Origin: a virus
IMG/VR virus record: IMGVR_UViG_3300046777_001715
Span: 32,001 to 96,000 of that record
Strand: one strand, 5' to 3'
DNA length: 64,000 nt
The first letter of the stretch is position 1, and each line of letters begins with the position of its first letter. Below the pieces are notes generated by a model. It saw only the letters and a list, made by a program, of their open reading frames with translations. It did not search any database and was not told where the DNA came from. This document shows positions 1,855-49,524 of this stretch, one piece after another. The position numbers and the translations under genes were made by a program.

Positions 1855-2772
1855 ATGCCATTTCCACAAACTAGATATATGCGAGGCGGAGCAGGCCCAG
1901 TATCTTTTCTTTTAAGACAAGTCATTACAAAAGGATACGTTCTTGCTGGATATAGAAATAGCTCTCCTTGGACAAGCGTTAACGAAGTAACACATTCAAC
2001 TGATACAACTATAGATTTAGGAAGTCCTTTAAATAACTCTACTGCATATCCAGGTGGAATGTCAGACGACACATTTGCTTATGTTCTTAAAGCCAATAAT
2101 ACAGTCGGAGGATCAAGTTCACAAACTAATCGGTACAATATGAGAACAAATGTTTCAAATGTTGGACCGTCAGCTCCATATAACGTTGCAAATGCTGGAA
2201 CAATAATGCATCAAGAGCAATCATTTGCATACGGAAAACCAGCAGATGGATCAGCAGCAATTATGAAATTTAATTTTACAACACAGCAATGGATGAGCTC
2301 TATTGGTTCAGCCGCTGGTCCAAACTCAGACACAATGTCTGCTGTTTATCACGAGACAAAAGGTTTTCACTATGGAAACAACTCAGCGTTAAAATTTGTT
2401 TTTGCAACAGAATCTCAGTCTAGCTCTTCAGTATCTGGTGTTCATGGTCAGCAAAAAGGAATTTCTTCTAAGTTGACATATCTTTACGCTGGCAATGAAG
2501 GAGACTACGCTGGAGGCAACAACCTAAGAAGATGGAGCGTTGCTACAGAGACAAACGTAGGAAATGTTGGAAAGCCAATTACAAATTGTGGCGAAGAAGA
2601 TTTTGACATGGGGCAAGATCGTCAATTCATGCTTGGAAACTATAACGGAGAGCAAAATAATAGATCTTGGAGATTTAATTATGCTACAGACTCTGGTTTT
2701 GAAGGCAGCAGCACAATGCAGTCTAAGGGAGTTCCAGGCAGAAGCTCTGCCTACTCAGCACAACGTTCTTAA
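1855..2772 (+). CDS. Putative beta-propeller receptor-binding/virion protein
   Basis: Ser/Gly/Asn-rich, with repeated K/R-F-x-F/Y-A/T-T-E/D/Q blade ends (KFNFTTQ, KFVFATE, RWSVATE, RFNYATD). Confidence 0.5.
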   Translation: MPFPQTRYMRGGAGPVSFLLRQVITKGYVLAGYRNSSPWTSVNEVTHSTDTTIDLGSPLNNSTAYPGGMSDDTFAYVLKANNTVGGSSSQTNRYNMRTNVSNVGPSAPYNVANAGTIMHQEQSFAYGKPADGSAAIMKFNFTTQQWMSSIGSAAGPNSDTMSAVYHETKGFHYGNNSALKFVFATESQSSSSVSGVHGQQKGISSKLTYLYAGNEGDYAGGNNLRRWSVATETNVGNVGKPITNCGEEDFDMGQDRQFMLGNYNGEQNNRSWRFNYATDSGFEGSSTMQSKGVPGRSSAYSAQRS

Positions 2773-2787
2773 TAGATAGGAAATAAA

Positions 2788-3519
2788 ATGAGATATATAA
2801 ACGATTTAACGTCGGATGTTTCTGGCTATACAAAATCACAAAAAGACATTCTTCTTTACGCTACAAATAGACACTGGGGAGTTCCAGTATTTAAAATAGA
2901 TAACTTTGTCGGCGGGGCACAGTTCACACCATTTGGAAAGTTAAGACAGCTTCTGCTAGAGCTTGGTTCAAGAGAAAATATGATCTCAGATCAGGAGCTT
3001 AAAATAGAAAGAACAAAGCTAGAAATTGAATTAGAAAAAGAAAGAATTCAGCTTTCAAGCTCTCCTGTAGAAATAAAAATTCACGAACTTAATATTAAGG
3101 AAAAAGAAAGACTTCTATTAACTCAAAAAAATTCTGTTAGCTTGATATACGAAGAAAGAGATAAGTATATGATGTTAATAGATAAGTTTAATAATTCAGA
3201 AGAAGGCAAGCTTCCAGATGGCAGACTTATTATGGATATTATTGGAAACCATGAGGAAGAAGAAAGGCTAGAGGCAGAACTTTGGGGCATTAGACTTGGT
3301 GCACAAGCGGCATACGATTTAATGTTTTACGGAAGAGTTAATGGCGGAAACATGGAGGCAATTGATCAACTTCCAAAAGAAGTAAGAGAGATAGCTTTGG
3401 AGCATGCTGTATTTAAAGCAATTGAAACAAATAAGCAGCTAGACTCCCTACAGATAGAGGTTAAGAAAAGGCTGGAGCTTGCAGATTCAGAAACAAACTT
3501 GTGGGAAGAGCTTGAGTGA
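2788..3519 (+). CDS. Hypothetical coiled-coil protein (U32 cassette)
   Basis: 243-aa ORF with SD and a Glu/Lys/Leu heptad region. Confidence 0.6.
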   Translation: MRYINDLTSDVSGYTKSQKDILLYATNRHWGVPVFKIDNFVGGAQFTPFGKLRQLLLELGSRENMISDQELKIERTKLEIELEKERIQLSSSPVEIKIHELNIKEKERLLLTQKNSVSLIYEERDKYMMLIDKFNNSEEGKLPDGRLIMDIIGNHEEEERLEAELWGIRLGAQAAYDLMFYGRVNGGNMEAIDQLPKEVREIALEHAVFKAIETNKQLDSLQIEVKKRLELADSETNLWEELE

Positions 3520-4064
3520 TTTATTTTTTATTTGATGTAGAGGACAACGCCTCTTATATAGAGGAGGTTGGATCATGGGGCAATGTAATGGTTGGAGCGG
3601 TAGATGAAAGTCTACTTTTGTATATAAACCTTCCATCTATTACAGTCGTGCCAAAAGATGTGGCGTATGCCTGGAAATTTGCTGGCAAATACAAAGGCTC
3701 TATTAGCGTAAGAGAGAATACAGTCCCTTATAATCAAATAGACAAATCATTGCTTGAGCCATACAAAGATAAGTTTAAGTATACCTTGTCTGATTTAGAT
3801 AAAGAAAATAGTTGCCTCTTTCATAAAGCCATAATGCATTTTCTTTTAAATAAATATTATGCCAATAAAATTTTAATTTCAAACTCTACACCCGTTGAGC
3901 TAAGGAATGACAAGTGGGAGTCTGAGGTAGAGCTAATAATTAAGAAAAATAAAATAATTGCAGAGATAGAGTCTTGTCAAGATTGGCAAGAAACTGGTAT
4001 ACTAATATCTGATAGATTTGGAGTTGGGCATAATCCTGACGCCGTAGCCAAAATAGATTTGTAG
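3516..4064 (+). CDS. Hypothetical protein (U32 cassette)
   Basis: GTGA overlap with the upstream gene; 182 aa. Confidence 0.6.
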   Translation: MIYFLFDVEDNASYIEEVGSWGNVMVGAVDESLLLYINLPSITVVPKDVAYAWKFAGKYKGSISVRENTVPYNQIDKSLLEPYKDKFKYTLSDLDKENSCLFHKAIMHFLLNKYYANKILISNSTPVELRNDKWESEVELIIKKNKIIAEIESCQDWQETGILISDRFGVGHNPDAVAKIDL

Positions 4065-4068
4065 GAAA

Positions 4069-5733
4069 ATGTTTAGTGTACCATTAAACCCAAAGTTAAA
4101 TGAAAAGCAAACAATTGAGTTTATCCAGTTCCTAAAGGAATATAGTAAATACATTTATGATTTTTATTTTACTTGCAGAATCCCCCCATTTACACAAGAT
4201 GCCATGGGCGACATTTTTGAGGGCAAAGAAGAAGACTATTCTTATTTAATTAATCTAGCTCTCCACATTCAGGCTGAGACTGGAATTACAGCATCAGCAG
4301 TATTTAACAATACAGAGGTAAGGCCATCACAACAAAACCTAGATTTGTTTATTGAAAGTTTTGCACCACTCTATGATTTAGGAATTAGATCTGCAACAAT
4401 ACCACATACTCATTGGATGGCTACTGGACAGATAAAAAAAGCTTTTCCAGAATTGTTTGTTAAAAACACAATCCTTAGAAATGTTTCAGAACCTAGAGAC
4501 ATAGAGAAGCTGGCTAAGGCTGGCTTTGATTATATAAATTTAGACCGTGATCTAATGAGGGACCACGAAAAGCTAAAAAGATTTAAGAAAGCCAAGCAAC
4601 AATTTGGGGTAAAGCTATCTTTGTTGGCAAATGAAGGCTGCTATGGCGGCTGTATAATGATGGACGAACACTATCAGTTTAACAATACCCGTACAGATGG
4701 GCCTCAATATTTTAATGATCCTATAAGCAGAGTGTCCTGCCCAAAATGGGATCATGAAGATTTTGCGGTATCATTAAAAACAGCCAATTTCCCACCATGG
4801 CGTGAAGACTGGCAAGAGTTTTTAGACGACCTTGGAATTGATGTTATTAAGATGCATGGGCGGGAATCCCATACAAGGCTAAAAGAAACCATGGATATAA
4901 TCAGGAGGTATGCCAACAATGAAGAAATTCTATTTGACAGCTTTAATGATTTTATTGAAGAAACTAATATGGTTGACAAACCGATTACCATCTGGCGTAA
5001 TAAGATCAAAAATTGTAAATTTGATTGCTGGGATTGTGGCTATTGTGACAAAATAATGGCTGCCAAATATGGCAACCACATAAATCCAAAAGTTGCTATG
5101 GTGGCAAAAGAATTAGTTGATTCTGTAAATAGCCCAATTGAAATTAATATTCCAGGTCTTACTTCTACTAGGGTTCAATCCCTTATAAATGGTTTAGCAA
5201 AGAACTCTTCTAGGTACCTTGAGATTGGGTCTTATCAGGGTGCTACAGCGTCTGCCGCTTTAATGGGTAATAGATTGGATGCGTACTTTGTAGACATGTG
5301 GCAGGAAGCTCCACAGGCCGTTAGAGAAGGGTGGGAAACTCCTACAACAAATACCTTGCAAGAATTTAAAAACAATATAGCTCCATACAAGGGTAACAAT
5401 AAGGTATTTATATCTAACTCAGATATGTTTAAAGTTAATTTATCAAAGATCTCAGATATTGATTTATTCTTTTATGATGGCCCACATGATTTTGAATCAA
5501 CAAAAGATGCGGTTAGATATTACTCTACAACCTTTGCAGATCAATCTATTTTAATATTTGATGATGCAAATTGGACGGAAGTGGTTCAGGGTGCACACAA
5601 AGGCATAATTGAATCTGGGCTAAAAATATTGTATAGTAAGAAGATACTGAATTCCTTAGAGTCGGAAAAAGACTGGTGGAACGGTATTTATATAGTTGTA
5701 GTAGAAAAGGAAAATAATGGAAATCACAACTAG
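4069..5733 (+). CDS. Peptidase U32-family (Fe-S hydroxylase-like) domain fused to a class I SAM methyltransferase (Methyltransf_24-like)
   Basis: U32-like motifs INLDRDLMRD, LLANEGCYGGC, SC, IKMHGRE and CKFDCWDCGYC. Methyltransferase motifs YLEIGSYQG, VDMW, DLFFYDGPHDF and IFDDANW. Confidence 0.75.
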   Translation: MFSVPLNPKLNEKQTIEFIQFLKEYSKYIYDFYFTCRIPPFTQDAMGDIFEGKEEDYSYLINLALHIQAETGITASAVFNNTEVRPSQQNLDLFIESFAPLYDLGIRSATIPHTHWMATGQIKKAFPELFVKNTILRNVSEPRDIEKLAKAGFDYINLDRDLMRDHEKLKRFKKAKQQFGVKLSLLANEGCYGGCIMMDEHYQFNNTRTDGPQYFNDPISRVSCPKWDHEDFAVSLKTANFPPWREDWQEFLDDLGIDVIKMHGRESHTRLKETMDIIRRYANNEEILFDSFNDFIEETNMVDKPITIWRNKIKNCKFDCWDCGYCDKIMAAKYGNHINPKVAMVAKELVDSVNSPIEINIPGLTSTRVQSLINGLAKNSSRYLEIGSYQGATASAALMGNRLDAYFVDMWQEAPQAVREGWETPTTNTLQEFKNNIAPYKGNNKVFISNSDMFKVNLSKISDIDLFFYDGPHDFESTKDAVRYYSTTFADQSILIFDDANWTEVVQGAHKGIIESGLKILYSKKILNSLESEKDWWNGIYIVVVEKENNGNHN

Positions 5734-6634
5734 TTTGATTACAGATAATCAACAGTACTTGTTGCTTTTGGCAACGGTTATGGGGTTGTCTTTTTGGGCA
5801 AAAAAGACTCAGGTATTTTTGCCAGTTTATAAGTTCATTGCTGATAGAGTAAAGTCAAAAAGAGCAGTCGTTGCACTAATCTCTTTGATCTCAGGAGTTC
5901 TTCCAGTTAATGGTAGAGCATCAATTTCTGCAGGAGCCCTAGATACAGTTGCTCCAAACAATGAAAAAAGAAAAGTTTTTGGAATTATTGATTACCTTTC
6001 AACGCACCACTATTATTTCTGGTCTCCACTAGAGGCTACAGTTTTGGTTCCAATGGCGGCATTAAGCATTTCTTATGCAGAATTTATGGGACGCATTTGG
6101 CCATTGTTAGTAACAGCCCTAATTATAATTTTGTATTATATCTTTAAGGTTGTAAAAGAAGACGAAGTTGAGATTAACATTAACAAGTCGCTAACCCCAA
6201 CAACATGGAAAGAAGATAGAAAGCAGATTAGGTCATATGCAACCACCCTTCTTTTTGTTGGTTTGGTGATTATTCTTAGCAACATCGTAAAGGCAAATTT
6301 TGATCAAATTAATGCATGGGTAAATTCAGCACATGATGAAGGTCTTTTGGTTCTAGTAGCTTTGGCTGGATTCCTTGCCAGCTTTGCTTTGGGAAGTAGC
6401 GGAAAGTTTGCTGGCTTTACTTCTCTGTCTGCAACGGTTTATGGGGTAGAGTACCTACCTCTGTTCTTTGCAATAGACTATGCTGGCTACATGTTGGCCC
6501 CAACTCACAAATGCCTAATTATTACAAAGTCCTATTTTGATACCCCAATCAAGAAGCACTACAAAGCAGTCTTCGCCCTAGTGGTGCCGATTGTCCTTGT
6601 GGGAATTTTGACCTATTTAACAATAGACAGCTAG
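5717..6634 (+). CDS. Multi-pass membrane protein, DUF401 / ion-transporter-superfamily-like
   Basis: About 8-9 hydrophobic segments. HHYYFWSPL and GYMLAPTHKCLIITKSYF resemble the DUF401 C-terminal SPxHxCL motif. Confidence 0.55.
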   Translation: MEITTSLITDNQQYLLLLATVMGLSFWAKKTQVFLPVYKFIADRVKSKRAVVALISLISGVLPVNGRASISAGALDTVAPNNEKRKVFGIIDYLSTHHYYFWSPLEATVLVPMAALSISYAEFMGRIWPLLVTALIIILYYIFKVVKEDEVEININKSLTPTTWKEDRKQIRSYATTLLFVGLVIILSNIVKANFDQINAWVNSAHDEGLLVLVALAGFLASFALGSSGKFAGFTSLSATVYGVEYLPLFFAIDYAGYMLAPTHKCLIITKSYFDTPIKKHYKAVFALVVPIVLVGILTYLTIDS

Positions 6635-6646
6635 TAATTCTAGTCA

Positions 6647-6681
6647 ATACCCCAGTGGCTTCAAGAAGGTCACTGGGGTAT
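6647..6681 (+). terminator. Strong stem-loop closing the U32 cassette
   Basis: ATACCCCAGTGGC...GTCACTGGGGTAT inverted repeat 12 nt after the stop codon. Confidence 0.65.
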
Positions 6682-6730
6682 AATTAAGAGTGTTATAGGC
6701 AGGGCGGAATCCTAAACAATAAAACGATTA

Positions 6731-6739
6731 TGCTATAAT
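6731..6739 (+). promoter_or_regulatory. Extended -10 promoter TGCTATAAT
   Basis: Exact TGnTATAAT upstream of SD AGGAG and ATG 6757. Confidence 0.7.
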
Positions 6740-6756
6740 TTATACAGGAGAAAAAT

Positions 6757-7089
6757 ATGCCTAGTTATGACAGTTTATCAAGCCAGATCACTACTTTTAA
6801 AGCTAAAGTAGATGCTCTAAGCAGCAGCACCCTTACTGCACAAGAGATTGTATTCCTTGCAAAAGCACTAGAATCAATGGGTAATCTATTAGGGGTAAAT
6901 GATATCGTTGCTGCAACTTCAGCTAGCATCAATTCAATTCAAACATCAGGATCTGGACAGGTAACAACAGTTCAGACAGCTGGTGCAACTCAAATTGCTG
7001 CTGTTAACACAGCAGGAACACAAAACATTGCTAACTTGGAAGGCCAAATTAGCAATTATACTTTATACACAAACATGGGAGTGATTTAA
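6757..7089 (+). CDS. Fibre-associated protein, paralog of the 291..962 N-terminus
   Basis: MPSYDSLSSQITTFKAKVDAL versus MPNYSTLSDQINVFKDKVDAL; LGVND shared. Confidence 0.65.
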   Translation: MPSYDSLSSQITTFKAKVDALSSSTLTAQEIVFLAKALESMGNLLGVNDIVAATSASINSIQTSGSGQVTTVQTAGATQIAAVNTAGTQNIANLEGQISNYTLYTNMGVI

Positions 7090-7090
7090 T

Positions 7091-7408
7091 ATGGCAGTAG
7101 TAAGCTTACCAGCTCGTTTCGCAGCAGGAACAGCAACAACATCAGAAGTCACAGTACTAACAGTTCCTGGTGGAGAGACAGATATCGTTACTTCAGTAAC
7201 ATTTGACAACATCACAGATGTTGCAAATCAGGTTACATTGAAGATGGCAGGCGTAAACTTTGCCAAGAACCTTGATCTCGCACCAAGATCTCTAGTTGTA
7301 CTAGATTTCAAGCAAGTTTTAAACACAGCAGAGACAATTACAGTACAGGCATCAGTTAATAACGGTGTCACATACTTTATCTCTGGTGTAAAAGTCACAA
7401 GTATTTAA
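7091..7408 (+). CDS. Small virion beta protein, paralog of 11324..11680
   Basis: Shared D..QV and ISGV C-terminal motifs. Confidence 0.6.
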   Translation: MAVVSLPARFAAGTATTSEVTVLTVPGGETDIVTSVTFDNITDVANQVTLKMAGVNFAKNLDLAPRSLVVLDFKQVLNTAETITVQASVNNGVTYFISGVKVTSI

Positions 7409-7425
7409 TTAAAGGAGTTTAACAA

Positions 7426-8394
7426 ATGGCTGTAGCAAATTCAACTACACAAATCATAATGCCAGGTTTAGATGCGGCAATTCAGACAAATCTAAACACA
7501 GCGCTTAATAGCAATACTACACTTCAGAGCGTTTTGGCTTCTGTAGGAAATATTCCACTAAAGGTAGTTAAGCCAGTTACAGTTAAGTTGAACACAACAC
7601 AGTACTGGGTAAGACCAGCTGACACACTTTCTTCAGTAGAAGTTATTCTTGTTGGCGGCGGTGGCGGAGGCGGTCAAGGCCACTCATCAAGTCACGCAGG
7701 TGGCGGAGGTGGCGGAGGCCAAGTAGTTAGAAGAAATGTTGATATTGCATCAGTTGCTACAGGGCAAGGAATTCTTGTAACTATTGGTGCTGGTGGAGAT
7801 GCTCGCTCAGGAAGCGGAAATACTAATGGCGGAAATGGTGGACAATCAACTTTCGGTACATTGCTAACTGCAGGCGGTGGTGGTGGCGGTGGAGCTTATG
7901 GACAACACTCACCACAATCAGTTGGTTCAACTGGTGGCGGAGGTTCACGTAGTGCTCACTCAGGAGCAGGCGGTGGCGGTGGCGCAGGTGGCGCAGGTGG
8001 ACATGCATTCTGCTCACACAATCATTACAACTGGTATATTCGTGCAGGACACTCTTCACACTCTCCAACTGGAGATGAAGGTGCATCAGCTGGTGGACAA
8101 GGGCAGTCAGCAGACAGCTCTTCCGATCAAGGTTGCTGCGGTGGCGATGGAGGTCCAGGACTTTACGGCTTCGGCGGAGGCGGAGGTGGCGCAGGCTATC
8201 ATGGCCCAGGAAATGGAGCTAACGGTGGAGGAAATGGCGGTAACGCTACAAACTATGGCGGAATTGGATGTAACGGAGCTCAGGGAATTGACGGCACAGG
8301 CGGTGGCGGTGGTGGAGCAGACAATGGCTGTACATCAGGACGTGGTGGAAATGGAACATGCGTTATTACATATTGGCTAAAGGAGACAGCATAA
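7426..8394 (+). CDS. Glycine-rich adhesin-like protein (copy 1)
   Basis: W.RP ... VEVILVGGGGGGG ... VTIGAGG ... STFG ... GGNGTCVITY, a polyglycine domain common in phage fibre tips. Confidence 0.7.
   Translation: MAVANSTTQIIMPGLDAAIQTNLNTALNSNTTLQSVLASVGNIPLKVVKPVTVKLNTTQYWVRPADTLSSVEVILVGGGGGGGQGHSSSHAGGGGGGGQVVRRNVDIASVATGQGILVTIGAGGDARSGSGNTNGGNGGQSTFGTLLTAGGGGGGGAYGQHSPQSVGSTGGGGSRSAHSGAGGGGGAGGAGGHAFCSHNHYNWYIRAGHSSHSPTGDEGASAGGQGQSADSSSDQGCCGGDGGPGLYGFGGGGGGAGYHGPGNGANGGGNGGNATNYGGIGCNGAQGIDGTGGGGGGADNGCTSGRGGNGTCVITYWLKETA
7864..7904 (+). repeat. 41-bp exact direct repeat, copy 1 (copy 2 at 9639..9679)
   Basis: CTAACTGCAGGCGGTGGTGGTGGCGGTGGAGCTTATGGACA occurs in both Gly-rich genes. 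Confidence 0.85.
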
Positions 8395-8750
8395 TGACAC
8401 AAAGAAGAGTTGCACTTGTAAAAGATTCTATTGTTGAAAATATCCTCATTATTGATGAGGAAAATATGGAATCATTAAAGGCAGACATCGAATCACAATT
8501 TGGTGGGGAGTTAATTGACTCAACAGATTGGGTAGATGAAGATACTGAAACTCCAACACTACAGGTAGGTATAGGATTTTCTTATGTTGGTGGAAAATTT
8601 GTAAAGCCAGAGCCAACACCAAACACAATTACAGCAGAAGATATTGAAAGATCATTGGCAAAGTTTGCAGCAGACGTTGCAAGGGGAGAGAATCCAGATC
8701 TAAACTCATTGCCAGAAGGGGCAACAGGCCCACAGGAGGAAAATAACTAA
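8394..8750 (+). CDS. Small acidic fibre-associated protein
   Basis: TAATG coupling and SD AAGGAG. ALVKDSIVENIL ... VGIGFSYVGGKFVKP is typical of partners of Gly-rich fibre genes. Confidence 0.6.
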   Translation: MTQRRVALVKDSIVENILIIDEENMESLKADIESQFGGELIDSTDWVDEDTETPTLQVGIGFSYVGGKFVKPEPTPNTITAEDIERSLAKFAADVARGENPDLNSLPEGATGPQEENN

Positions 8751-9187
8751 TGCCAATTACATCGATACCAGAGTCCATTGCCCCAGCGCTTTGGACATAC
8801 ACATACGTACAGGCACCAATTGATGGTCAGGGAAATACCTATTTCAACATTCCATCAGCAGTAGAATCAAAAGGAAACATTGCTGCAAATGGAACAGCTA
8901 CATGCAATATTGCAGCGTTTAACGTTTTTGCATTTACAGTTCTAGGTAATGCAACAGTAGCTTTTTCAAATATTCCATCAACTGGCAAAGCAGCATTTTG
9001 GCAAGTTGAAATTAAAGCTGGAGGATCATACTCAATTACATGGCCAGCAGCAATAAAGTGGGATGGTGGTGGAGCTTCTAACGTAGCACCACTTCTTTCA
9101 ACAAATACAACAGTACTTAATTTTTACACAAGAGACGGTGGAAACACGATTTACGGATCATACGCTTTCGCTGATCTAAACGTATAG
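8750..9187 (+). CDS. Fibre-associated beta protein, paralog of 962..1354
   Basis: GGSYSITWPAAIKW..G...AP.LS ... FYTRDGG. Confidence 0.6.
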   Translation: MPITSIPESIAPALWTYTYVQAPIDGQGNTYFNIPSAVESKGNIAANGTATCNIAAFNVFAFTVLGNATVAFSNIPSTGKAAFWQVEIKAGGSYSITWPAAIKWDGGGASNVAPLLSTNTTVLNFYTRDGGNTIYGSYAFADLNV

Positions 9188-9200
9188 GAGAAAAAAATAA

Positions 9201-10181
9201 ATGGCAGTCAATTCCACCACTAAGTTAACAGTTCTACCAGGTCTAGATACAACCATGCAGACAAACATGCAGGTTGCTTTAAACTCAAATGCTACATTGG
9301 CATCAGTTATTTCTGCAACTGGTGGAGTTTCGACAAAGCTACTTAAGCCAGTAACTGTAAAGTTTAACTCTACAGGAAACTGGACTCGTCCAGCAAATAC
9401 AATGTCTTCAGTTGAAGTTATTCTTGTCGGCGGTGGCGGAGGAGGCGGAGGCTGCCATGCTTCAGGTCACTCAGGCGGTGGCGGAGGAGGCGGACAGGTT
9501 ATCCGACGCTTTGTTGATATCTCAGCAACTGCTCCAGGACAGAACATCCTTGTCACAATCGGTGGCGGAGGAACAAACGTTTCTGGAAACTCAAATACAA
9601 ATGGCGGAAATGGCGCAAACTCAACATTTGGCACATATCTAACTGCAGGCGGTGGTGGTGGCGGTGGAGCTTATGGACAGGTTGGTGCACAAGGCACAGG
9701 AGGCTCATCTGGTGGTGGAGGATCTCGTGGAGACCACGCAGCAGGCGGTGGCGGTGGCGGAGCAGCCCAGACAGGCCAAAGAGGTTATTGCTTTATGAAT
9801 CATGCTTATTGGTATGTAAGACCAGGATATGGATCTTATACACCAACTGGTGCAAACGGTGGAGATGGTGCATCTTCTGGAGGAACTGGAATGGAATCTG
9901 GTTCTTCTTCAGATCAAAATTGCTGTGGCGGAAATGGCGGATACGGTCTTTACGGCTTCGGCGGAGGCGGCGGAGGCGGCGGAGACTACGGAGTTGGTTC
10001 AGGTTCTAACGGTGGTGGAAACGGTGGATCTCGTGTATCTTACTCACCTTATGGAAGAAGCGCTTCTCCAGGAATTAACGGTACAGGCGGTGGCGGAGGC
10101 GGTTGTTCAGACGGCGCTACTTCTGGCGTAGGTGGATCTGGAACCTGCTTAATCACATACTATATAAAAGAGAGCTCATAA
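9201..10181 (+). CDS. Glycine-rich adhesin-like protein (copy 2)
   Basis: Colinear paralog of 7426..8394. Confidence 0.7.
   Translation: MAVNSTTKLTVLPGLDTTMQTNMQVALNSNATLASVISATGGVSTKLLKPVTVKFNSTGNWTRPANTMSSVEVILVGGGGGGGGCHASGHSGGGGGGGQVIRRFVDISATAPGQNILVTIGGGGTNVSGNSNTNGGNGANSTFGTYLTAGGGGGGGAYGQVGAQGTGGSSGGGGSRGDHAAGGGGGGAAQTGQRGYCFMNHAYWYVRPGYGSYTPTGANGGDGASSGGTGMESGSSSDQNCCGGNGGYGLYGFGGGGGGGGDYGVGSGSNGGGNGGSRVSYSPYGRSASPGINGTGGGGGGCSDGATSGVGGSGTCLITYYIKESS
9639..9679 (+). repeat. 41-bp exact direct repeat, copy 2
   Basis: Identical to 7864..7904. Confidence 0.85.
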
Positions 10182-24958: not shown

Positions 24959-27900
24959 GTGGCAGAGAATATTAATACTAATATAACCGCTAATGCTGAT
25001 TTTTCTGGCTTAATAAGTCAGATACATAAAGCAGTATCACAGCTCACACTTTTACAGCAAAAATTAGGGTCTTCAAATGTTGCGCTTACTCAACAGATTG
25101 CTGCAACAAACAATGCTTTTTCAGACGTACTTAGAAAAAGCAATCAATTTAATACCCACTTTGTAACACTAGCAAGTGACACTGAAAAGTTTGGCAAAGC
25201 TTTAGATTCAGGAAAATTAAAATTAAGAGATTACTATCAGCACTGGCAGCAATACCATCGCCAGGCTGGTGGTATGATCCGTGATCTTGCTAAGCAACAG
25301 ACAGCTCTACAAAACGCAATTGTTCAGCCAATGGGAAGAAACCAAAAGGGACAAATGCAGTTCAATGTTCATGTTCCAACTGGAATTGACGAGCTGGCCA
25401 ATAAGACAAAACTTGCAAGAACCGAAATGTCTATCCTTAATAAGGTTATGCAAGATGGATCAAACAGCTTAATTAACTGGGGTAAGAATACGCAGTGGGC
25501 TGGACGTCAGCTGACTGTTGGCCTTACGGTTCCAATGGCAGCATTTGGCGCTGCAGCTGCTAAGGCTTTTAGAGAAGCAGATCAAGAGCTGGTAAGACTT
25601 ACAAAGGTTTACGGCGGACTTTCAAAAACTTCAGACGCAGAGCTTGGTAAAGTAAGAGCAGATGCAGTTGCAACAGCAAGAGAGCTTTCTTCAGCATATG
25701 GTGTTTCTTTTAAAGAGACATTGTCTTTAGCAGCAGATATTGCTGCTACAGGAAAAACAGGCAACGAGCTTTTGGGTTCTATTCGTGAAACTACAAGACT
25801 TACCGTGCTTGGTGAAATTGACAAGCAAGAGGCAATGAAAGCAACTCTTGCAATTCAGAATGCTTTTAAGCAGAACACAGACGAGCTTGCAAAATCAATT
25901 AACTTCTTGAACGCAGTAGAAAACCAAACATCTACAACACTTGAAGATTTGGTTGAAGCAATTCCTAGAGCAGGTACAATTGTTAAAGGTCTTGGCGGCG
26001 GAGTAGAAGATTTAGCTTTGATGATGGTGGCGATGAAAGAAGGCGGAGTTGATGCAGCTTCAGCAGCTAACGGATTAAAGTCAGCACTTGGTTCTCTTAT
26101 TAATCCAACAAAAGTTGCAAAAGAACAGTTTGCTGGATTTGGAATTAATTTAACTCAAATTGTAGAAGGAAATGCTGGCAACATTACAGCAACAATTATG
26201 GAGTTGCAAAAGGCGATGGAAAAGCTTAATCCATTGCAAAAGCAACAGGCCATTGAAACTCTTTTTGGTAAGTACCAGTTTGCTCGTATGGGAGCTTTGT
26301 TTGACAACCTAGGAAAGCAAGGAAGCCAGACACTACAAGTATTAGATTTAATGAAGGCAAGCACAGACGATCTTGCTCAAGTAGCAGGTCGAGAATTAGG
26401 GATGATTACAGAGTCTGCTTCTGGTAAATATAGAAGAGCCCTAGAATCTTTGAAAGCAGATTTAGCAACAGTTGGAGAACAGTTCTTAGGAATTGCAACA
26501 GGCCTTCTTAATTTTGCTAATGGGGTTGTAAACGCATTTAATAAAATGCCAGAACCAATTAAAAAGATGGTTACTTTATTAGGCGGACTTACAGCAGTAG
26601 CTGGTCCAATCATCATGTTGACTGGTGTATTTGCTAACTTCCTTGGATATGTGATGAAGGGCTTTTCAGCAATTAGAGCTTTCTTTAGTCACGCAGAAGG
26701 ATTTAAATTACTTACTCCAGAAATGATGGCAGCTAATCAAGCTGGTACATTAGTAGAAAAAACATTTTATTCAGATGCAACAGCCGCAAAAGTTTTAACA
26801 ACCGCATTAAACGGAATGCGTTTAGAAATGCAACAAATTGCAACTCTATCAAGAAGCGGTACGGTTACAGCAAAACCAATTATCGCAGGTGCAGCCGAAG
26901 GAGTCGGCATTGCTTCCTATGACTTTGCACACTATAACCCTCAATCTAAGTTATCCGAAGAAGCAAGACTTGCACAGACATTCCACACATCAGTTCCTTT
27001 AGACCCTTCAACAAATAAAAAGATTGGTCAGAATCCACAAATGATGGCAATGCCTGGAACAACTCTTCCAAATGTTCCTGGTCTTACAACAATCAATGGC
27101 GCAAGCACAGCAATTAATGCTAAAGAGGCAGCAAAATGGCATACTCAAATGACCGTTATGGCAATGCGTTCAAAAGATGAAATTATGGCAGTGGAAAAGA
27201 TTATTGATTCAACTGGCAAGTTGCCAGCAGAATTTATGGCAGACTTTAGCCACATTCTCCCAAAGATGGAAGCAATTACTTCAACAGCAGCTGCGTCAAG
27301 TGCTCGTGTAGCGGCAGCAGCACAAGCTGGAATACTTACAGTAGAAAAATCACAAGCAGCACTTACAGCAATCAATGCAAAGATGATTGAAAGAATGAAT
27401 GCTTTGTCTATTGCTTCTGGTGTACCTTTAGATAGAATGACAGTTGTTCCTGGAACAGGAACTACAATTGCAACTGGTACAGCAATTGATAAAAATACAG
27501 ATTACAATATGCGTTCAACTCTTCGCTCAGGCGCAGGAAGAGCTGGATCAATTACAAGTAAAATTGCTAAAGCAGTAGGAACATCTGTAAGAAGAATCAA
27601 GTTTGCAACTGGTGTAACAGCTTTAGGCAAGTTCTTGCCTAAGTTTACAGACATGAGAAAAGCAGCAGCTGCTGCAAAAATGTTAAGAGAATATTCCACA
27701 AGATCTGGTGGAATTGGTGGAACAAGAACTCCAAACTTAAGGCCACCAAAGCCTGGTAAGCGTGGAAGGAGTGGTGCTTCAACTGGAAAAGCTAGCGAAT
27801 CTGGCATGGGAACATCCTTTAGAGACTTTTCAAAAAGAGATAGCGATTTGTATGAAGATTCTTGGTGGAAGGAAGTTGGTGTAACTCCTACAGCTAAAGG

Positions 27901-30900
27901 TATAGGAGCTGATGATGAATATCTAGTTCACGCAATTACTCCTGCATTTAAAAAGAGAACAGCAAGCTTACCAGTTATGGGAAAGCAGTCCACCCCGTCA
28001 TTACCTAGAGAAAGATTTGATGAATTTAATATTTCAACAACATCAAAAGCTCCTTATCTTCAAGTTCTCCCTACAACATTTATAAAGAATACAAAAAGAT
28101 TTAATGATGCATTAAAAACTGGAGCAAGTCCAGATGATTTTAGAGAAGTAACTGGATCCGATATGGTCAGCTTCTTGGCCTTTTTAAAGGATCAAGGATT
28201 AAGGCCAGCACAAGCAAAAGCTTTAGCAGACAGAGCTGCAACACTTTTAAATCAAAAGGTTAAAAATTCCACAAACCCTATAACAGAAGAAGTATTTGGA
28301 GCAATGTTTAACCAATCAACTGTTAGAGCATTGCGTTCTGGGTTTATGCCTTCAATGCGTCCAGTAGTAAATACTTTTGGTTACGATAGACATTCAAGAA
28401 ACCGTGGACTTGAGCCAATGCCTTTCCAAAATGGAGTTACAAGACTTCCTGGTTATGGCGGAGGAGATACAATCCCAGCACTTCTTGAGCCAGGAGAGTC
28501 TGTTGTTACAAAAACAGCAACTGCTGGTAACGAAGGCGCAATTGCATTTATGAATGCTGGAGGAAAGATCCCTGGATTTGCTGGAGGAATTACAGCAATT
28601 GGAACTAAGATTAGTGCAATGAGAGCATCAAGAGCGGAAAAGCTTGCAGAGAATCCATTCTATAAGCCAATGGGAATGGGTGGAAATATTGCTGGATCTA
28701 TTGGCGGAGGAATAGCTGGAAGAATGACTGGGCTTCCAGGAGGAGAAATTGTAGGTTCAATAATTGGACCAGCAATTCTTTCAAGAATTATGGGTGTAAC
28801 AAAAGCTCTTTCTCTTGGAATTAAAACGGGAGCAGGATTTGTAAATACTCTTAAGATGATGGGAACTGCACTTAGAATAACTCCATGGGGATTGGCGGCA
28901 ACTGGTGTTGCAGCACTAGGACTTAAATTATTTAATATGTGGAAAACAGCTAAAGCGCAAAGCGATGCCGCAGCTCAATCATTTAAGGTAAATGAAAAGC
29001 TTGCAGGCCAATTGGGAATTAAATACACCACTTTGTCTGGAAAAATAAAATCTGCACAAGAAGATGCTAAGAGACAAAAGCAAATACTTCAAGCCGTTCT
29101 TGAAACCAATAGATTGGCAGGCGGAACAGGCGGACTTTCTATGACTATTAAAGAGCTTAAGGATATGCAGGCTCAAGCAAAGAAGTCTCAACCAGACGTA
29201 ATCAAGCTATTTGATGCAATGGATAGAAAAGATGTTGTTGCTAATGCTGCAGCAATGAAAGCACAATTAGTTGCAGGAGGAATGGCTGCAGATAAAGCAG
29301 CAAAGATGATATTTGCAATTATTACAGAATCTAATAAAGCATCTCAAGCAGTTGCTGCAATTTCTTCTAAGCCGTTTATGGAAATTAAAGATAAGGTTTC
29401 TGCAGCAACAGTTTCAGTAAGCACATTTAATAAAGCTATGGGCGTATATGGTGTAAATGGAAATGAATTGGCAGCAGCATTTGAAGGATCAATGGATGCA
29501 ATTGATGCTTACTACAATAGCTTAGTTGGGTCAAAAGACGAAACTGGAAAGATTATAACAGAAACAGAAGCTTTAAGAATGACAATGGAAAAGCTAAATG
29601 GTTCTGCTGCAACGAATAGGCAACTTGGACAATACAATTTAAATCTTATCCTTAAGCAAAAGCCAGAGCTTAAGGGAATTCTTTCTGCAACAGATTCAAC
29701 TGCAGATGCATATGCAAAGATTAAGCTATACACATCTGGAGTAGTAGATGATCTAAGCAAGATAAGTGGAATGCAAGCTCAAGCAATGCTTGCAGTTCAA
29801 AATGCTGTATCTCAAAATGCTACCGCTATGACAACAGATACCTCTATTAAGAATAACCCACTAGCTAGCTTAGCAGGACTCGGTGCAGAAGCAGCAAAAG
29901 CTTCTAAGACAGCTGCAGCACAAGCAGCCGCAGCATCAAGAGCTGCACAAAGAGATATCTCAAAAGAAGCAGCACTAATTGATAAGAAGATTGCTGCAAT
30001 TAAAAAAGAGGCGGATGCAAGAAAGAAAGCGCTTCAAGAGCAGCAAGATGCTGCAGACGTAGGACTTGCAATACAAGAACAGCAGCTTAGGTATCAAAAT
30101 GCTTTAGCAACTGGCAATATGAATGAGGCAGCTTCAGCTCAAATTGAAATTCAAAGACTTAGTGGTCAACATCAAAATAAGTTGGCTCAAACAGCAATTG
30201 AAGATAAGGCAAATAAAGATACAGAAGCTCTTCAAAATAAAAAGGCTGGACTGGAAGCATCACTTGCAGCTGCACAAAAAGCAGCAGCAGCAGCGGCAGA
30301 AAAAGCTTCTCTTGCTGCTGAAAGAGATTCAACAATTAAAACAATTCAGTCAACAATTGGAACTCTTATTACAAATGCTGGTCTTACAAACGATAAGGAC
30401 AAGATTGAGGCATACGGATACCAACTAAGAGATCAACTAGATGCACTCAGAAAGCTTGGAAAGGCTGGTGTAGCAGCAGCTAACGCTATTGCAATGCCAA
30501 CAACAATGTCTTACAACGGTTCATCATTAACAACAAAGCCACAGGATTATTCAAAGGTCATACAAGAACTTGCAAAGAAGAATCTTGAGTCTACAGCGGC
30601 AACTGGAAAGTTTAGTGGTTCTGTAGACGACTTTAAAAAAGCTGTTTCAGATTTCCAAATTGCAGCAGGTGGCGGAACATCAAAGTCAAGCGCTATCTCA
30701 ATTGATTACAATGCTAAGTATAGAAAAGACCCTAAAAAACAAAATATTCTAGATGATGATTCAAAGAAAGCAATTGTAAAAGATTATGGATTTAAGGCTG
30801 GACAGTATTTTGAATACGACGGAAGAGTTTATCGTGTTAAGTCAGCCACAGATATTGTGGCACAAAATTACGCAGAAGGTGGAGCAATTTACGGAGCAGG

Positions 30901-31249
30901 ATCATCAACATCAGATTCAATTCCAGCAATGCTTTCAAACGGAGAATTTGTTGTAAAGGCTTCAGCTGTTCAAAAGTATGGTGTCGGAACAATGGAAGCA
31001 ATTAATTCTATGAAATATGCTGCTGGAGGAATGGTTTCTTCATACGGTAGCGCAAATAAATATGCTACTGGAGGAAGAATTAGATTCAACGATGGCGGTA
31101 TGGCAGGAAATGCTATTGGAACTAATGTGGTAATAAATAATGACATTACTGTTAATGGAACTAATTTGACTGGACAAGAAATTGCACAGGCTATAATGGT
31201 AGAACAAAACAGACAAATTTCAATGTCTGGAAAGCAGAGGAACTTCTAA
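24959..31249 (+). CDS. Tape measure protein
   Basis: 2096 aa, Ala-rich and helical; TP901-like core and DSIPAMLSNGEFVV motif. Confidence 0.93.
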   Translation: MAENINTNITANADFSGLISQIHKAVSQLTLLQQKLGSSNVALTQQIAATNNAFSDVLRKSNQFNTHFVTLASDTEKFGKALDSGKLKLRDYYQHWQQYHRQAGGMIRDLAKQQTALQNAIVQPMGRNQKGQMQFNVHVPTGIDELANKTKLARTEMSILNKVMQDGSNSLINWGKNTQWAGRQLTVGLTVPMAAFGAAAAKAFREADQELVRLTKVYGGLSKTSDAELGKVRADAVATARELSSAYGVSFKETLSLAADIAATGKTGNELLGSIRETTRLTVLGEIDKQEAMKATLAIQNAFKQNTDELAKSINFLNAVENQTSTTLEDLVEAIPRAGTIVKGLGGGVEDLALMMVAMKEGGVDAASAANGLKSALGSLINPTKVAKEQFAGFGINLTQIVEGNAGNITATIMELQKAMEKLNPLQKQQAIETLFGKYQFARMGALFDNLGKQGSQTLQVLDLMKASTDDLAQVAGRELGMITESASGKYRRALESLKADLATVGEQFLGIATGLLNFANGVVNAFNKMPEPIKKMVTLLGGLTAVAGPIIMLTGVFANFLGYVMKGFSAIRAFFSHAEGFKLLTPEMMAANQAGTLVEKTFYSDATAAKVLTTALNGMRLEMQQIATLSRSGTVTAKPIIAGAAEGVGIASYDFAHYNPQSKLSEEARLAQTFHTSVPLDPSTNKKIGQNPQMMAMPGTTLPNVPGLTTINGASTAINAKEAAKWHTQMTVMAMRSKDEIMAVEKIIDSTGKLPAEFMADFSHILPKMEAITSTAAASSARVAAAAQAGILTVEKSQAALTAINAKMIERMNALSIASGVPLDRMTVVPGTGTTIATGTAIDKNTDYNMRSTLRSGAGRAGSITSKIAKAVGTSVRRIKFATGVTALGKFLPKFTDMRKAAAAAKMLREYSTRSGGIGGTRTPNLRPPKPGKRGRSGASTGKASESGMGTSFRDFSKRDSDLYEDSWWKEVGVTPTAKGIGADDEYLVHAITPAFKKRTASLPVMGKQSTPSLPRERFDEFNISTTSKAPYLQVLPTTFIKNTKRFNDALKTGASPDDFREVTGSDMVSFLAFLKDQGLRPAQAKALADRAATLLNQKVKNSTNPITEEVFGAMFNQSTVRALRSGFMPSMRPVVNTFGYDRHSRNRGLEPMPFQNGVTRLPGYGGGDTIPALLEPGESVVTKTATAGNEGAIAFMNAGGKIPGFAGGITAIGTKISAMRASRAEKLAENPFYKPMGMGGNIAGSIGGGIAGRMTGLPGGEIVGSIIGPAILSRIMGVTKALSLGIKTGAGFVNTLKMMGTALRITPWGLAATGVAALGLKLFNMWKTAKAQSDAAAQSFKVNEKLAGQLGIKYTTLSGKIKSAQEDAKRQKQILQAVLETNRLAGGTGGLSMTIKELKDMQAQAKKSQPDVIKLFDAMDRKDVVANAAAMKAQLVAGGMAADKAAKMIFAIITESNKASQAVAAISSKPFMEIKDKVSAATVSVSTFNKAMGVYGVNGNELAAAFEGSMDAIDAYYNSLVGSKDETGKIITETEALRMTMEKLNGSAATNRQLGQYNLNLILKQKPELKGILSATDSTADAYAKIKLYTSGVVDDLSKISGMQAQAMLAVQNAVSQNATAMTTDTSIKNNPLASLAGLGAEAAKASKTAAAQAAAASRAAQRDISKEAALIDKKIAAIKKEADARKKALQEQQDAADVGLAIQEQQLRYQNALATGNMNEAASAQIEIQRLSGQHQNKLAQTAIEDKANKDTEALQNKKAGLEASLAAAQKAAAAAAEKASLAAERDSTIKTIQSTIGTLITNAGLTNDKDKIEAYGYQLRDQLDALRKLGKAGVAAANAIAMPTTMSYNGSSLTTKPQDYSKVIQELAKKNLESTAATGKFSGSVDDFKKAVSDFQIAAGGGTSKSSAISIDYNAKYRKDPKKQNILDDDSKKAIVKDYGFKAGQYFEYDGRVYRVKSATDIVAQNYAEGGAIYGAGSSTSDSIPAMLSNGEFVVKASAVQKYGVGTMEAINSMKYAAGGMVSSYGSANKYATGGRIRFNDGGMAGNAIGTNVVINNDITVNGTNLTGQEIAQAIMVEQNRQISMSGKQRNF

Positions 31250-49317: not shown

Positions 49318-49524
49318 ATGAGATCGTACGAGATACCAGACCCATTTGAAACATTTGTTTCAAACAAGTATCGTAACTATACTGGAGCGGTATATGATTT
49401 TTTTGCCAGAGAATGGCATATGAAATGTGGCTGCTGCAAAGAAGATTTGTATGCACCAAATAAAAAAACAATGACAAAAATTAGACTTTACCATACAAGA
49501 AATGAATGCACAGGAGGCTACTGA
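49318..49524 (+). CDS. Small Cys/His zinc-binding protein
   Basis: CGCC ... H....C; TGATG-coupled to dnaE. Confidence 0.6.
   Translation: MRSYEIPDPFETFVSNKYRNYTGAVYDFFAREWHMKCGCCKEDLYAPNKKTMTKIRLYHTRNECTGGY

Follow-up and report, generated by a model that had tools for sequence, protein, structure and literature searches.

Organization of the cassette

The window analyzed here is a 64,000-nucleotide stretch of viral DNA, positions 32,001 to 96,000 of the IMG/VR virus record IMGVR_UViG_3300046777_001715. Near its start, a hairpin and five closely packed genes form a cassette that lies among tail-fiber genes. The central gene, g4069, encodes a predicted enzyme in which a barrel domain, distantly similar to the U32 family, is fused to a methyltransferase. 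The five genes make up a single accessory module that moves horizontally among tailed phages, and they are probably not part of the fiber itself. The features of the cassette, with coordinates in the window, are as follows.

1855-2772, plus strand: g1855, open reading frame (ORF) of 305 amino acids (aa); Ser/Gly/Asn-rich repeat protein, PHROG 1417, cyanophage T4-GC 351 'sericin-like'
2788-3519, plus strand: g2788, ORF of 243 aa; acidic helical protein, PHROG 1409, T4-GC 353
3516-4064, plus strand: g3516, ORF of 182 aa with a GTG start; acidic protein, equivalent of cyanophage T4-GC 352
4069-5733, plus strand: g4069, ORF of 554 aa
4069-5100 (aa 1-343), plus strand: N-terminal domain of g4069, a U32-like (beta/alpha)8 barrel in an AlphaFold2 (AF2) model, with invariant Cys191, Cys195 and Cys224
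5014-5046, plus strand: CxxxCxxCxxC cluster (Cys316, 320, 323 and 326), where the barrel domain ends
5101-5733 (aa ~345-554), plus strand: C-terminal domain of g4069, a predicted catechol O-methyltransferase (COMT)-like class I S-adenosylmethionine (SAM) methyltransferase, from PF13578 and fold matches
5717-6634, plus strand: g5717, ORF of 305 aa; multi-pass membrane protein, shortened DUF401/TIGR00529-like
6647-6681, plus strand: hairpin with a 15-bp stem that closes the cassette and abuts a TATAAT box at 6679-6684

The tight coupling of the five genes reported by the initial annotation is confirmed, as all ORFs lie on the same strand and are separated by gaps of 15 nt or less or overlap. The first gene starts directly after its upstream neighbor (0 nt), and the four junctions inside the cassette are, in order, a gap of 15 nt, an overlap of 4 nt, a gap of 4 nt and an overlap of 17 nt. 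The gene directly before the cassette (1354-1854) had been called a fiber chaperone, and its product matches the Pfam family Phage_tail_APC (E 9.8e-11) and tail-fiber-assembly families of PHROG. It is preceded by two fiber-like genes, with fiber-like PHROG matches spanning 291-1354. Further fiber-like matches follow the cassette at 7426-8394, 8750-9187 and 9201-10181, and the ORF at 10551-11315 matches a virion-structural PHROG family. The cassette is thus embedded among fiber genes, as first described. The product of the gene at 6757 has an N-terminus in common with the product of the gene at 291. Judged by its position, the cassette would be expressed late. A megablast search of the region against isolate phages gave zero matches at the DNA level.

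Distribution and co-inheritance

The distribution of the module was examined in 50,697 records of isolate phages. The g4069 family is present in 126 of them, namely 123 T4-like cyanophages and three records of the Ralstonia phages RP12 and RP31. The g2788 family, searched with the P-HM2 protein as the query, is also present in 126 records with an identical breakdown by organism and host. It is the most faithful companion of the enzyme, Ralstonia phages included. The g1855 family is found in 123 records, all cyanophage, and ORF142 of RP12 matches the hidden Markov model (HMM) of the family (E 2.6e-7).

Gene order is conserved along with gene content. Nearly all of the 80 closest IMG/VR loci hold the order 1855-2788-3516-4069-5717, with identity of the enzyme down to 55%. 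A second and more diverse IMG/VR sample comprised 77 loci, 60 with enough upstream sequence and 55 with enough downstream sequence. In 59 of the 60, all three partner families precede the enzyme gene, and 36 of the 55 have a membrane-protein gene downstream of it. Conserved synteny extends across about 150 IMG/VR loci in total. A gene-neighborhood check for homologs scattered without synteny therefore found the opposite.

The same block can be followed into cultured phages. In P-HM2, the genes PHM2_098-101 are contiguous and annotated as T4-GC 351-354, and in S-CAM4 gp164-161 are contiguous. The T4-GC numbers are those given in the annotation of the records and in the PMC3037559 supplement. 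Comparisons with P-HM2, S-CAM4 and S-H25 by tblastn and iterated HMMs equate g1855 with GC351, g3516 with GC352, g2788 with GC353 and g4069 with GC354. The order of GC352 and GC353 in the window is reversed relative to the marine cyanophages, and in S-ShM2 GC353 and GC354 are separated by 12 annotated genes. RP12 and RP31 are phiKZ-related phages (PMC5468394). Their block consists of ORF142 (repeat protein), ORF141, ORF140 (g2788-like), ORF139 (barrel only, 346 aa) and ORF138 (membrane protein); ORF140 and ORF139 abut, and ORF139 and ORF138 overlap.

The carriers are thus T4-like cyanophages, the phiKZ-related Ralstonia phages and the siphovirus-like 106-kb phage of the window. Movement of the same block among three unrelated phage architectures gives good support to an adaptive, self-contained function. 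Together with the matching phyletic sets and the conserved synteny, it upholds the earlier proposal of a co-inherited system. The cyanomyovirus clusters T4-GC 351-354 and PHROGs 1417, 1409, 1458 and 14035 are direct homologs of the module proteins. In contrast to the cyanomyoviruses, the phage of the window is not T4-like, its two middle genes are swapped, and the membrane protein is attached to the block.

Several contigs carry the barrel family in other surroundings. A 224-kb IMG/VR contig of jumbo size (L205) has a stand-alone barrel-family gene, and none of the partner families was detected there with a threshold of E 1e-4. This contig may represent a further, third architecture beside the RP12 type. 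In the metagenome-assembled genome (MAG) contigs L087 and L101, the barrel family lies inside long arrays of genes on one strand; a tail-chaperone-like match is found in L101 as well. L087, L104 and L105 yield the same barrel match. These four contigs (L087, L101, L104 and L105), binned as Pelagibacterales, Thaumarchaeota, Chloroflexota and Nitrososphaerales, have the look of phage DNA that was wrongly assigned to cellular MAGs.

The enzyme g4069

The barrel domain was modeled with AF2 from its first 343 residues and an alignment of 62 diverse homologs, and the model has a mean predicted local distance difference test (pLDDT) score of 93.3. Its top match in Foldseek is the U32 protein Mk0906 (5d88), with E 2.9e-7 and a template-modeling (TM) score of 0.69 normalized to target length. 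The same structure is the top match of VIA-align among about 48,000 chains (Z 16.7, root-mean-square deviation 3.1 A, 223 of 247 residues), and the runner-up reaches Z 13.3. The runner-up fold matches are methylenetetrahydrofolate reductase, CutC and class II aldolases. Profile comparison points in the same direction. A U32 profile was built from 13 sequences, namely UbiU, UbiV and 11 canonical U32 proteins from bacterial genomes, and hhalign aligned it with the barrel family over 297 columns with 96.8% probability and E 2.6e-10. Three separate sub-alignments gave 95-96.5% against this profile, and reversed and unrelated controls gave 0.1-0.4%. In the alignment, the KIEGR motif of U32 falls on K-x-H-G-R of the barrel family (K(M)HGR). 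The profile of 13 was required, as hhalign against single UbiU or UbiV sequences returned zero result. Searches of PDB by sequence and profile with four alignments of module proteins (A1, A2, A4 and A5, of which A2 covers the barrel and A5 g2788) yielded nothing meaningful.

The U32 label of the initial annotation is sound as a statement of remote homology, supported by the top fold match and the profile comparison, but it does not extend to membership in the Pfam family PF01136. Ten distant representatives of the barrel family matched zero Pfam families, and PF01136 has zero matches anywhere in the 106-kb genome (E<=10). The same profile finds canonical U32 proteins in four of the five bacterial genomes that hold the barrel family; the Dehalogenimonas genome has three barrel-family copies and no PF01136 match. 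Profile and model comparison place the barrel family as a remote, separate branch of the U32-like superfamily.

The signature of this predicted branch is a set of cysteines. Among the 62 members, which are as low as 21% identical, the only invariant columns are Cys 191, 195, 224, 316, 320, 323 and 326. They form the pattern C191-X3-C195-X28-C224 and C316-X3-C320-X2-C323-X2-C326. At the position of the terminal cluster, a CxxxC...CxxC pattern is present in all 48 representatives inspected, in stand-alone as well as longer forms. Seven cysteines would be enough for an iron-sulfur (Fe-S) cluster and a second metal site, and metal binding is predicted. In UbiU and UbiV, four cysteines in a CX6CX15CX3/4C arrangement bind [4Fe-4S] (PMC6747719). 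Like Mk0906 and the U32 hydroxylases, the domain has a (beta/alpha)8 barrel, K-x-x-G-R after a late strand and cysteines around the C-terminal half. Unlike g4069 with its seven invariant cysteines, the U32 family is without a terminal CX3CX2CX2C cluster. It also differs in that g4069 is fused to a methyltransferase and sits in a phage module with repeat and helical partners.

The methyltransferase label is well founded. A Pfam search with full-length g4069 finds Methyltransf_24 (PF13578) alone, at residues 384-499 with 38 bits against a cut-off of 26.3, and this family is matched in 16 of 16 homologs. Foldseek matches of the C-terminal domain include the catechol/COMT-like O-methyltransferases 6jcl, 8c9s, 3tfw and 3duw (E about 1e-7), and the archaeal RNA methyltransferase 1wy7 scores equally well. 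Invariant residues are E385, G387, G391, T393, D409, 468-FYDGPH-473 and 498-DDAN-501. Among them, the motifs with D470, D498, D499 and N501 are similar to the Asp/Asp/Asn metal positions of COMT, as read from the sequence rather than from superposition. The domain shares with COMT/CCoAOMT-type and Methyltransf_24 enzymes (Rv0187 6jcl, Streptomyces COMT 8c9s, B. cereus 3duw) the Rossmann fold, the glycine loop of motif I and an acidic residue after strand 2, and its D-G-P-H and D-D-A-N motifs may correspond to their metal-binding Asp/Asp/Asn positions. Unlike these enzymes, it is the C-terminal part of a 554-aa fusion, and its identity to solved enzymes is 12-17%.

The two domains also travel together. 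In the 77 IMG/VR loci of the diverse sample, barrel and methyltransferase are fused in 62. In 14, the methyltransferase has an ORF of its own that lies downstream of the barrel ORF and overlaps it, and one locus has no methyltransferase. Fusion in most loci and adjacent overlapping ORFs in the others provide a Rosetta-stone link between barrel and methyltransferase. The 14 split forms are either true splits or frameshifts; they include L163, L184, L196, L200-L204 and L214 (for example, L163 6923-8005 and 7966-8574).

Partner proteins

The product of g1855 belongs to phrog_1417 (E 5e-48). Self-alignment of its family profile gives off-diagonal matches at shifts of ~48 and ~94 residues, the best at 95.7% and 94.8% in a range of 58-96%, and the protein has roughly six internal repeats of ~47 aa each. 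One neighboring cluster of the Atlas is 22% Kelch. From its repeats, g1855 is probably a six-bladed beta-propeller. The earlier propeller label agrees with the repeats but not with Pfam, as the propeller families of Pfam match neither g1855 nor 20 members of its family. A sequence relative of g1855 was not found in PDB. In other lineages, two or three tandem paralogs of g1855, some about 670 aa, lie directly upstream of the module (L047 2611-6193; L054 114-5441; L062 3217-6494; L163 1787-5225).

The product of g2788 belongs to phrog_1409 (E 7e-28) and has the conserved motifs FVGxAQxTPFxKxRQxLLEL and WxxRLxxQAAxDxxxYGRxGxGN. It had been labeled a coiled coil. A helical character is suggested by a low-confidence Atlas model, whose only matches are helical hairpins with TM below 0.5. 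The third partner, g3516, has no match in Pfam, PHROG or NCBIfam. Its iterated family HMM matches P-HM2_099, S-CAM4 gp163 and the S-H25 equivalent with E 1e-41 to 1e-47. The enzyme and the helical partners are acidic, with an isoelectric point (pI) of about 5, and g1855 has a pI of 8.5. No nucleic-acid-binding domain was found in the soluble proteins of the module. None of the five proteins matches a defense or counter-defense profile of PADLOC (E<=0.1), and NCBIfam offers no names for the five beyond a weak match of g5717 to TIGR00529.

The membrane protein g5717 belongs to phrog_14035 (E 6e-78) and has 8-9 hydrophobic segments. Its label as DUF401-like stands in part: it matches PF04165 with 45.1 bits (cut-off 24), but the match is partial, made of two stretches of which the best is C-terminal and covers only profile positions 329-393. 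Like DUF401/TIGR00529 proteins, g5717 is a multi-pass membrane protein above the gathering score of PF04165. Unlike them, it has 305 aa rather than about 390-440 aa and lies far below the equivalog cut-off of TIGR00529 (49.9 bits against 378.4). It is the optional and loosest member of the module. Its family is present in 12 isolate records, as compared with 126 for the enzyme. A g5717-like gene follows the enzyme directly in RP12 and RP31, is one gene downstream in S-H25 and is separated from it by 56 kb in S-CAM4. In cellular genomes, no link of DUF401 to U32-like genes was found. DUF401 occurs in 42 of 301 Planctomycetota genomes, and 30 loci from them have no U32 or barrel-family neighbor within 1.5 kb. 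DUF401 is absent from four of the five genomes with the barrel family. No function for DUF401 was found in the literature, which yielded one incidental mention.

Relationship to the fiber genes and the virion

Allele co-variation separates the cassette from its surroundings. It was measured in 17 haplotypes of the close clade as identity to the copies in the window. The identity of g4069 is 81-91% throughout, and that of g1855 and g2788 is 45-89%. The identities of g1855 and g2788 co-vary with r = 0.97. Their correlation with the fiber flanks is about -0.2 to -0.4, which sets the cassette apart from the fiber set as a unit of its own. These data argue against a maturation role specific to fibers. 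The initial annotation's suggestion of a propeller adhesin that is matured or modified is not supported, and its ideas of superinfection exclusion and transport are speculative. The flanks themselves co-vary across the cassette: the fiber and chaperone genes (947-1854) correlate with the small genes at 6757-7408 (r = 0.62-0.94) and not with the cassette between them. By these allele patterns, the fiber set looks like one exchange unit split by an independent insert.

The virion data do not place the module proteins in the particle. Mass spectrometry of RP31 virions detected 32 proteins, and none of them is a product of RP31 ORF135-139, the five module proteins. The products of both genes that flank the block (ORF133 and ORF140) were detected. 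These data are based on gel bands and are therefore insensitive. In the accessible part of the supplement of PMC3037559, T4-GC 351-354 appear only in the gene-cluster listing, and the cyanophage virion proteomics of that study speaks neither for nor against them.

The surroundings of the block vary among lineages. In some, it contains a 2-oxoglutarate (2OG)-Fe(II) oxygenase, a DUF6445 protein or a tryptophan (Trp) halogenase. In cyanophages, the block sits in plastic regions rich in auxiliary genes (2OG-Fe(II) oxygenases, petE, gnd). A pathway link to the Trp halogenase, which is adjacent in L083, was rejected: the phages with the halogenase (such as Syn9, S-PM2 and P-SSM2) are largely a different set, which indicates a plastic neighborhood and not a pathway.

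The contexts of distant cellular homologs come from one profile scan of genome contigs. In a proteobacterial MAG (L089 5944-8239), a barrel-family gene lies 44 nt downstream of a gene for an NHL/DUF5128 six-bladed beta-propeller; this is a single case. One Dehalogenimonas chromosome (L090, L093 and L095) has three barrel paralogs and no canonical Pfam U32. Two of these paralogs adjoin reductive dehalogenase genes, and two adjoin genes for 714-aa B12-binding radical-SAM proteins fused to PqqD. Other distant cellular homologs adjoin a gene for a URO-D protein or a flavin adenine dinucleotide (FAD) oxidoreductase.

A proposed function and its alternatives

We tentatively favor hydroxylation and subsequent O-methylation of a protein target as the activity of the module, although we give this clearly less than an even chance. 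The known substrates of characterized U32 enzymes are U34 and C2501, each hydroxylated at C5, and the ring of ubiquinone; prephenate is implicated in each case, either as the donor of the oxygen or as a requirement (PMC6599085, PMC5727448, PMC6747719, PMC10990095). Since U32 stands for aromatic or heteroaromatic hydroxylation and a COMT-like domain for methylation of a hydroxyl, hydroxylation followed by O-methylation is the most economical mechanism. In B. subtilis, the U32 genes trhP1 and trhP2 presumably adjoin the O-methyltransferase gene trmR, and TrmR can be likened to the methyltransferase of g4069 by analogy. The anaerobic ubiquinone proteins UbiU-UbiV-UbiT, taken with UbiG, are also alike by analogy, as they combine a U32-type hydroxylase that acts on the ring, an O-methyltransferase that acts next, and small non-catalytic accessory factors that bind lipid (PMC6747719). 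Unlike that system, the module has no detected SCP2 domain, its partners are unrelated, and its hosts are without a common quinone type.

Under the favored mechanism, g4069 would be the catalytic core, and its barrel would be a distant relative of the O2-independent, prephenate-using U32 hydroxylases (UbiU/UbiV, TrhP and RlhA). The barrel would hydroxylate an aromatic or heteroaromatic carbon, and the methyltransferase would cap the new hydroxyl as a methoxy group. The products of g1855, g2788 and g3516 may be accessory subunits that present or constitute the substrate, and the target may be a propeller-family protein or its binding partner. As an optional add-on, g5717 could tether the enzyme to the membrane, or it could supply or remove a small co-substrate.

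The propeller and helical proteins are always present and evolve fast, which suggests a macromolecular target or a substrate-presenting complex. Several observations hint more specifically at a protein. The enzyme is well conserved among the 17 haplotypes while g1855 and g2788 diverge in step with each other, and tandem paralogs of the repeat protein lie beside a single enzyme gene. A bacterial homolog lies beside the NHL propeller gene, and the Dehalogenimonas paralogs lie beside the B12-radical-SAM fusions with PqqD, a peptide-recognition domain. The enzyme and its helical partners are acidic and lack a detected nucleic-acid-binding domain, and g1855 is basic. In its fullest form, the proposal would be a phage-borne machine for the post-translational modification of proteins or for modification of the envelope. 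An O2-independent Fe-S hydroxylase from a new U32-like family and an O-methyltransferase would place methoxy groups on aromatic residues of the diversifying propeller or of a bound host target, and the machine would have spread among cyanophages, jumbo phages and freshwater siphoviruses by altering adsorption, exclusion or host takeover. This complete picture is an unlikely one.

Several results weigh against the proposal. The window protein does not match PF01136 (E<=0.01), and neither does any of 16 homologs (E<=10). The cysteine pattern is unlike the CX6CX15CX3/4C of U32, and the sole alignment with a U32 ligand is that of C191 with C176 of UbiU. Together, these two results mean that the chemistry could differ. 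A methyltransferase was not found within 7 kb of the barrel gene in RP12 and RP31, so methylation is not obligatory. The absence of the g1855 homolog from the proteins detected in RP31 virions counts against a modified fiber-tip protein, within the insensitivity of the gel-band method. That g1855 and g2788 co-vary may be due simply to their adjacency and to blocks of recombination. The contexts of the distant cellular homologs are suggestive but heterogeneous.

Alternatively, the substrate of the same chemistry could be a component of the cell envelope, a small molecule or a lipid (for instance, a quinone), and g5717 would be a transporter or anchor. The module would then have an auxiliary-metabolic or envelope-remodeling role, for example in exclusion, release or host takeover, which we regard as rather unlikely and yet a serious contender. 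The best-studied U32 pair, UbiU/UbiV, hydroxylates a membrane quinone, and O-methylation comes next (PMC6747719). In the window, as in RP12 and RP31, the genes for the enzyme and the membrane protein overlap, and the latter gene is present in 36 of 55 IMG/VR loci, but 114 of the 126 isolate records with the enzyme are without it. Likewise, the 30 Planctomycetota DUF401 loci have no U32-like neighbor within 1.5 kb. The cyanophage block lies in auxiliary-gene-rich regions and elsewhere occurs with a 2OG oxygenase or the Trp halogenase; however, the phyletic set of the halogenase differs. The far greater conservation of the enzyme than of its partners fits a fixed small substrate, but a small substrate would leave the always-present repeat and helical proteins without a role. 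The quinones of the hosts also differ (plastoquinone, ubiquinone and probably menaquinone). That the module proteins were undetected in RP31 virions is compatible with action on a small molecule, and it argues against another explanation, in which the five genes have no joint function. In that case, g1855, g2788 and g3516 would be structural or assembly proteins of the fiber or baseplate, and the enzyme and the membrane protein would be passengers linked by a recombination-poor late operon. The block always adjoins fiber or virion genes, its repeat protein is tandemly expanded like receptor-binding proteins, and GC353 and GC354 are 12 annotated genes apart in S-ShM2. Position can hardly explain the matching phyletic counts and the transfer of the unit into three backbones, however, and the cassette does not co-vary with fiber flanks that co-vary across it. 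Absence of a joint function is thus improbable.

Two further alternatives concern the chemistry and the substrate class. The barrel could be a distinct Fe-S or zinc TIM-barrel enzyme, such as a lyase, a reductase, a peptidase or a catalyst of radical chemistry, with methylation unrelated to a new hydroxyl. The PF01136 miss and the cysteine pattern that departs from the U32 motif (PMC6747719) would agree with this. So would the next fold matches (methylenetetrahydrofolate reductase, CutC and class II aldolases) and the proximity of cellular homologs to genes for reductive dehalogenases, corrinoid-type (URO-D) proteins and B12-radical-SAM proteins. The CX3CX2C within the tail cluster also has radical-SAM spacing, but it comes after the barrel and not at the radical-SAM position. 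Moreover, U32 is the top match of two independent aligners by a clear margin and of a profile comparison with clean controls, the KIEGR motif aligns with K(M)HGR, and a COMT-like methyltransferase suits a hydroxyl acceptor. A different chemistry is accordingly judged distinctly unlikely. An RNA-modifying enzyme is very improbable. It would be a phage equivalent of TrhP plus TrmR that makes 5-hydroxyuridine or 5-methoxyuridine (ho5U/mo5U) at the tRNA wobble position, or 5-hydroxycytidine (ho5C) in rRNA, and adapts host translation to the AT-rich phage genome. The pairing of U32 with a COMT-like O-methyltransferase mirrors what we take to be the mo5U pathway of B. subtilis, and beta-propeller partners exist for some eukaryotic tRNA methyltransferases. 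Two of the three characterized U32 activities act on RNA (PMC6599085, PMC5727448). However, the enzyme and its partners are acidic and an RNA-binding domain was not found in them, a membrane protein is superfluous for RNA modification, and rapidly diversifying partners are ill-suited to a conserved RNA target.

Significance of the module

The genes of the module are already catalogued, as T4-GC 351-354 and several PHROGs, without an assigned function. Sullivan et al. (2010) listed T4-GC 351-354 as hypothetical, in five or six of the compared genomes (PMC3037559). No paper was found on the module, the U32-like assignment or the fusion of barrel and methyltransferase, including by P-HM2 locus tags. 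The proposed enzyme chemistry is a variation on a known kind, and the module is without a described counterpart. It is a common one, present in about 120 sequenced myoviruses of marine Synechococcus and Prochlorococcus, hundreds of contigs in IMG/VR, and protein clusters that number about 1,900; all its members are annotated as hypothetical.

Four cyanophage genes long listed as hypothetical, T4-GC 351-354, gain a proposed reaction that is testable by mass spectrometry. Culturable carriers include P-HM2 on MED4, Syn19, S-H25 on WH8102 and RP12 on Ralstonia. The putative new U32-like branch with its seven-cysteine signature is also present in Dehalogenimonas, Planctomycetota and other bacteria, and it widens the candidate set of prephenate-type, oxygen-independent hydroxylases.

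The hairpin and the downstream region

The cassette ends at a strong hairpin, as the initial annotation stated. The 15-bp stem has a folding free energy of -27.4 kcal/mol and a z-score of -5.95, and 0 of 200 shuffles fold equally well. The hairpin is kept at the equivalent position in most close relatives, including the intergenic regions of L005-L035, with compensatory changes in the stem. Its 3' arm nearly always continues into GGGGTATA(AT) in the relatives. Within the region 6636-6760, the arm runs directly into TATAAT (GGGGTATAAT) in nearly all of them. A terminator or processing hairpin therefore overlaps a -10-like box. The hairpin is without a U-tract and is absent from the list of the terminator scan.

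The new promoter that had been placed behind the hairpin is not confirmed. The sequence there has TATAAT boxes at 6679-6684 and 6734-6739 and AGGAG at 6746-6750, and a scan of the plus strand for a two-hexamer sigma-70 promoter matched none. Contigs from RNA libraries give weak indications only: one bridges the hairpin (6074-7451), and others start at 6648 and 6753. Such contigs, from four freshwater studies, cover portions of all five genes. They may contain DNA and reveal neither strand nor level, and they are not counted as evidence of expression.

The phage that carries the window

The parent virus record is 106,256 bp long and is judged to be about 99% complete. It encodes an HK97-type set of portal, protease and capsid proteins, a DnaB helicase, a large DNA polymerase and a terminase. 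The ORF at 24959-31249 has 2,096 aa and, by its size and position, is taken to be the tape-measure protein. This combination of genes indicates a large siphovirus-like phage and not a T4-like one. The DNA polymerase, of 1,096 aa (phrog_405), is encoded at 49506-52796. Several studies have the stretch in metagenomes of freshwater, riverine and plankton samples, and the carrier is taken to be a large, long-tailed phage of fresh water. One 79%-identical homolog of the g4069 barrel domain is filed under a Micrococcales MAG.

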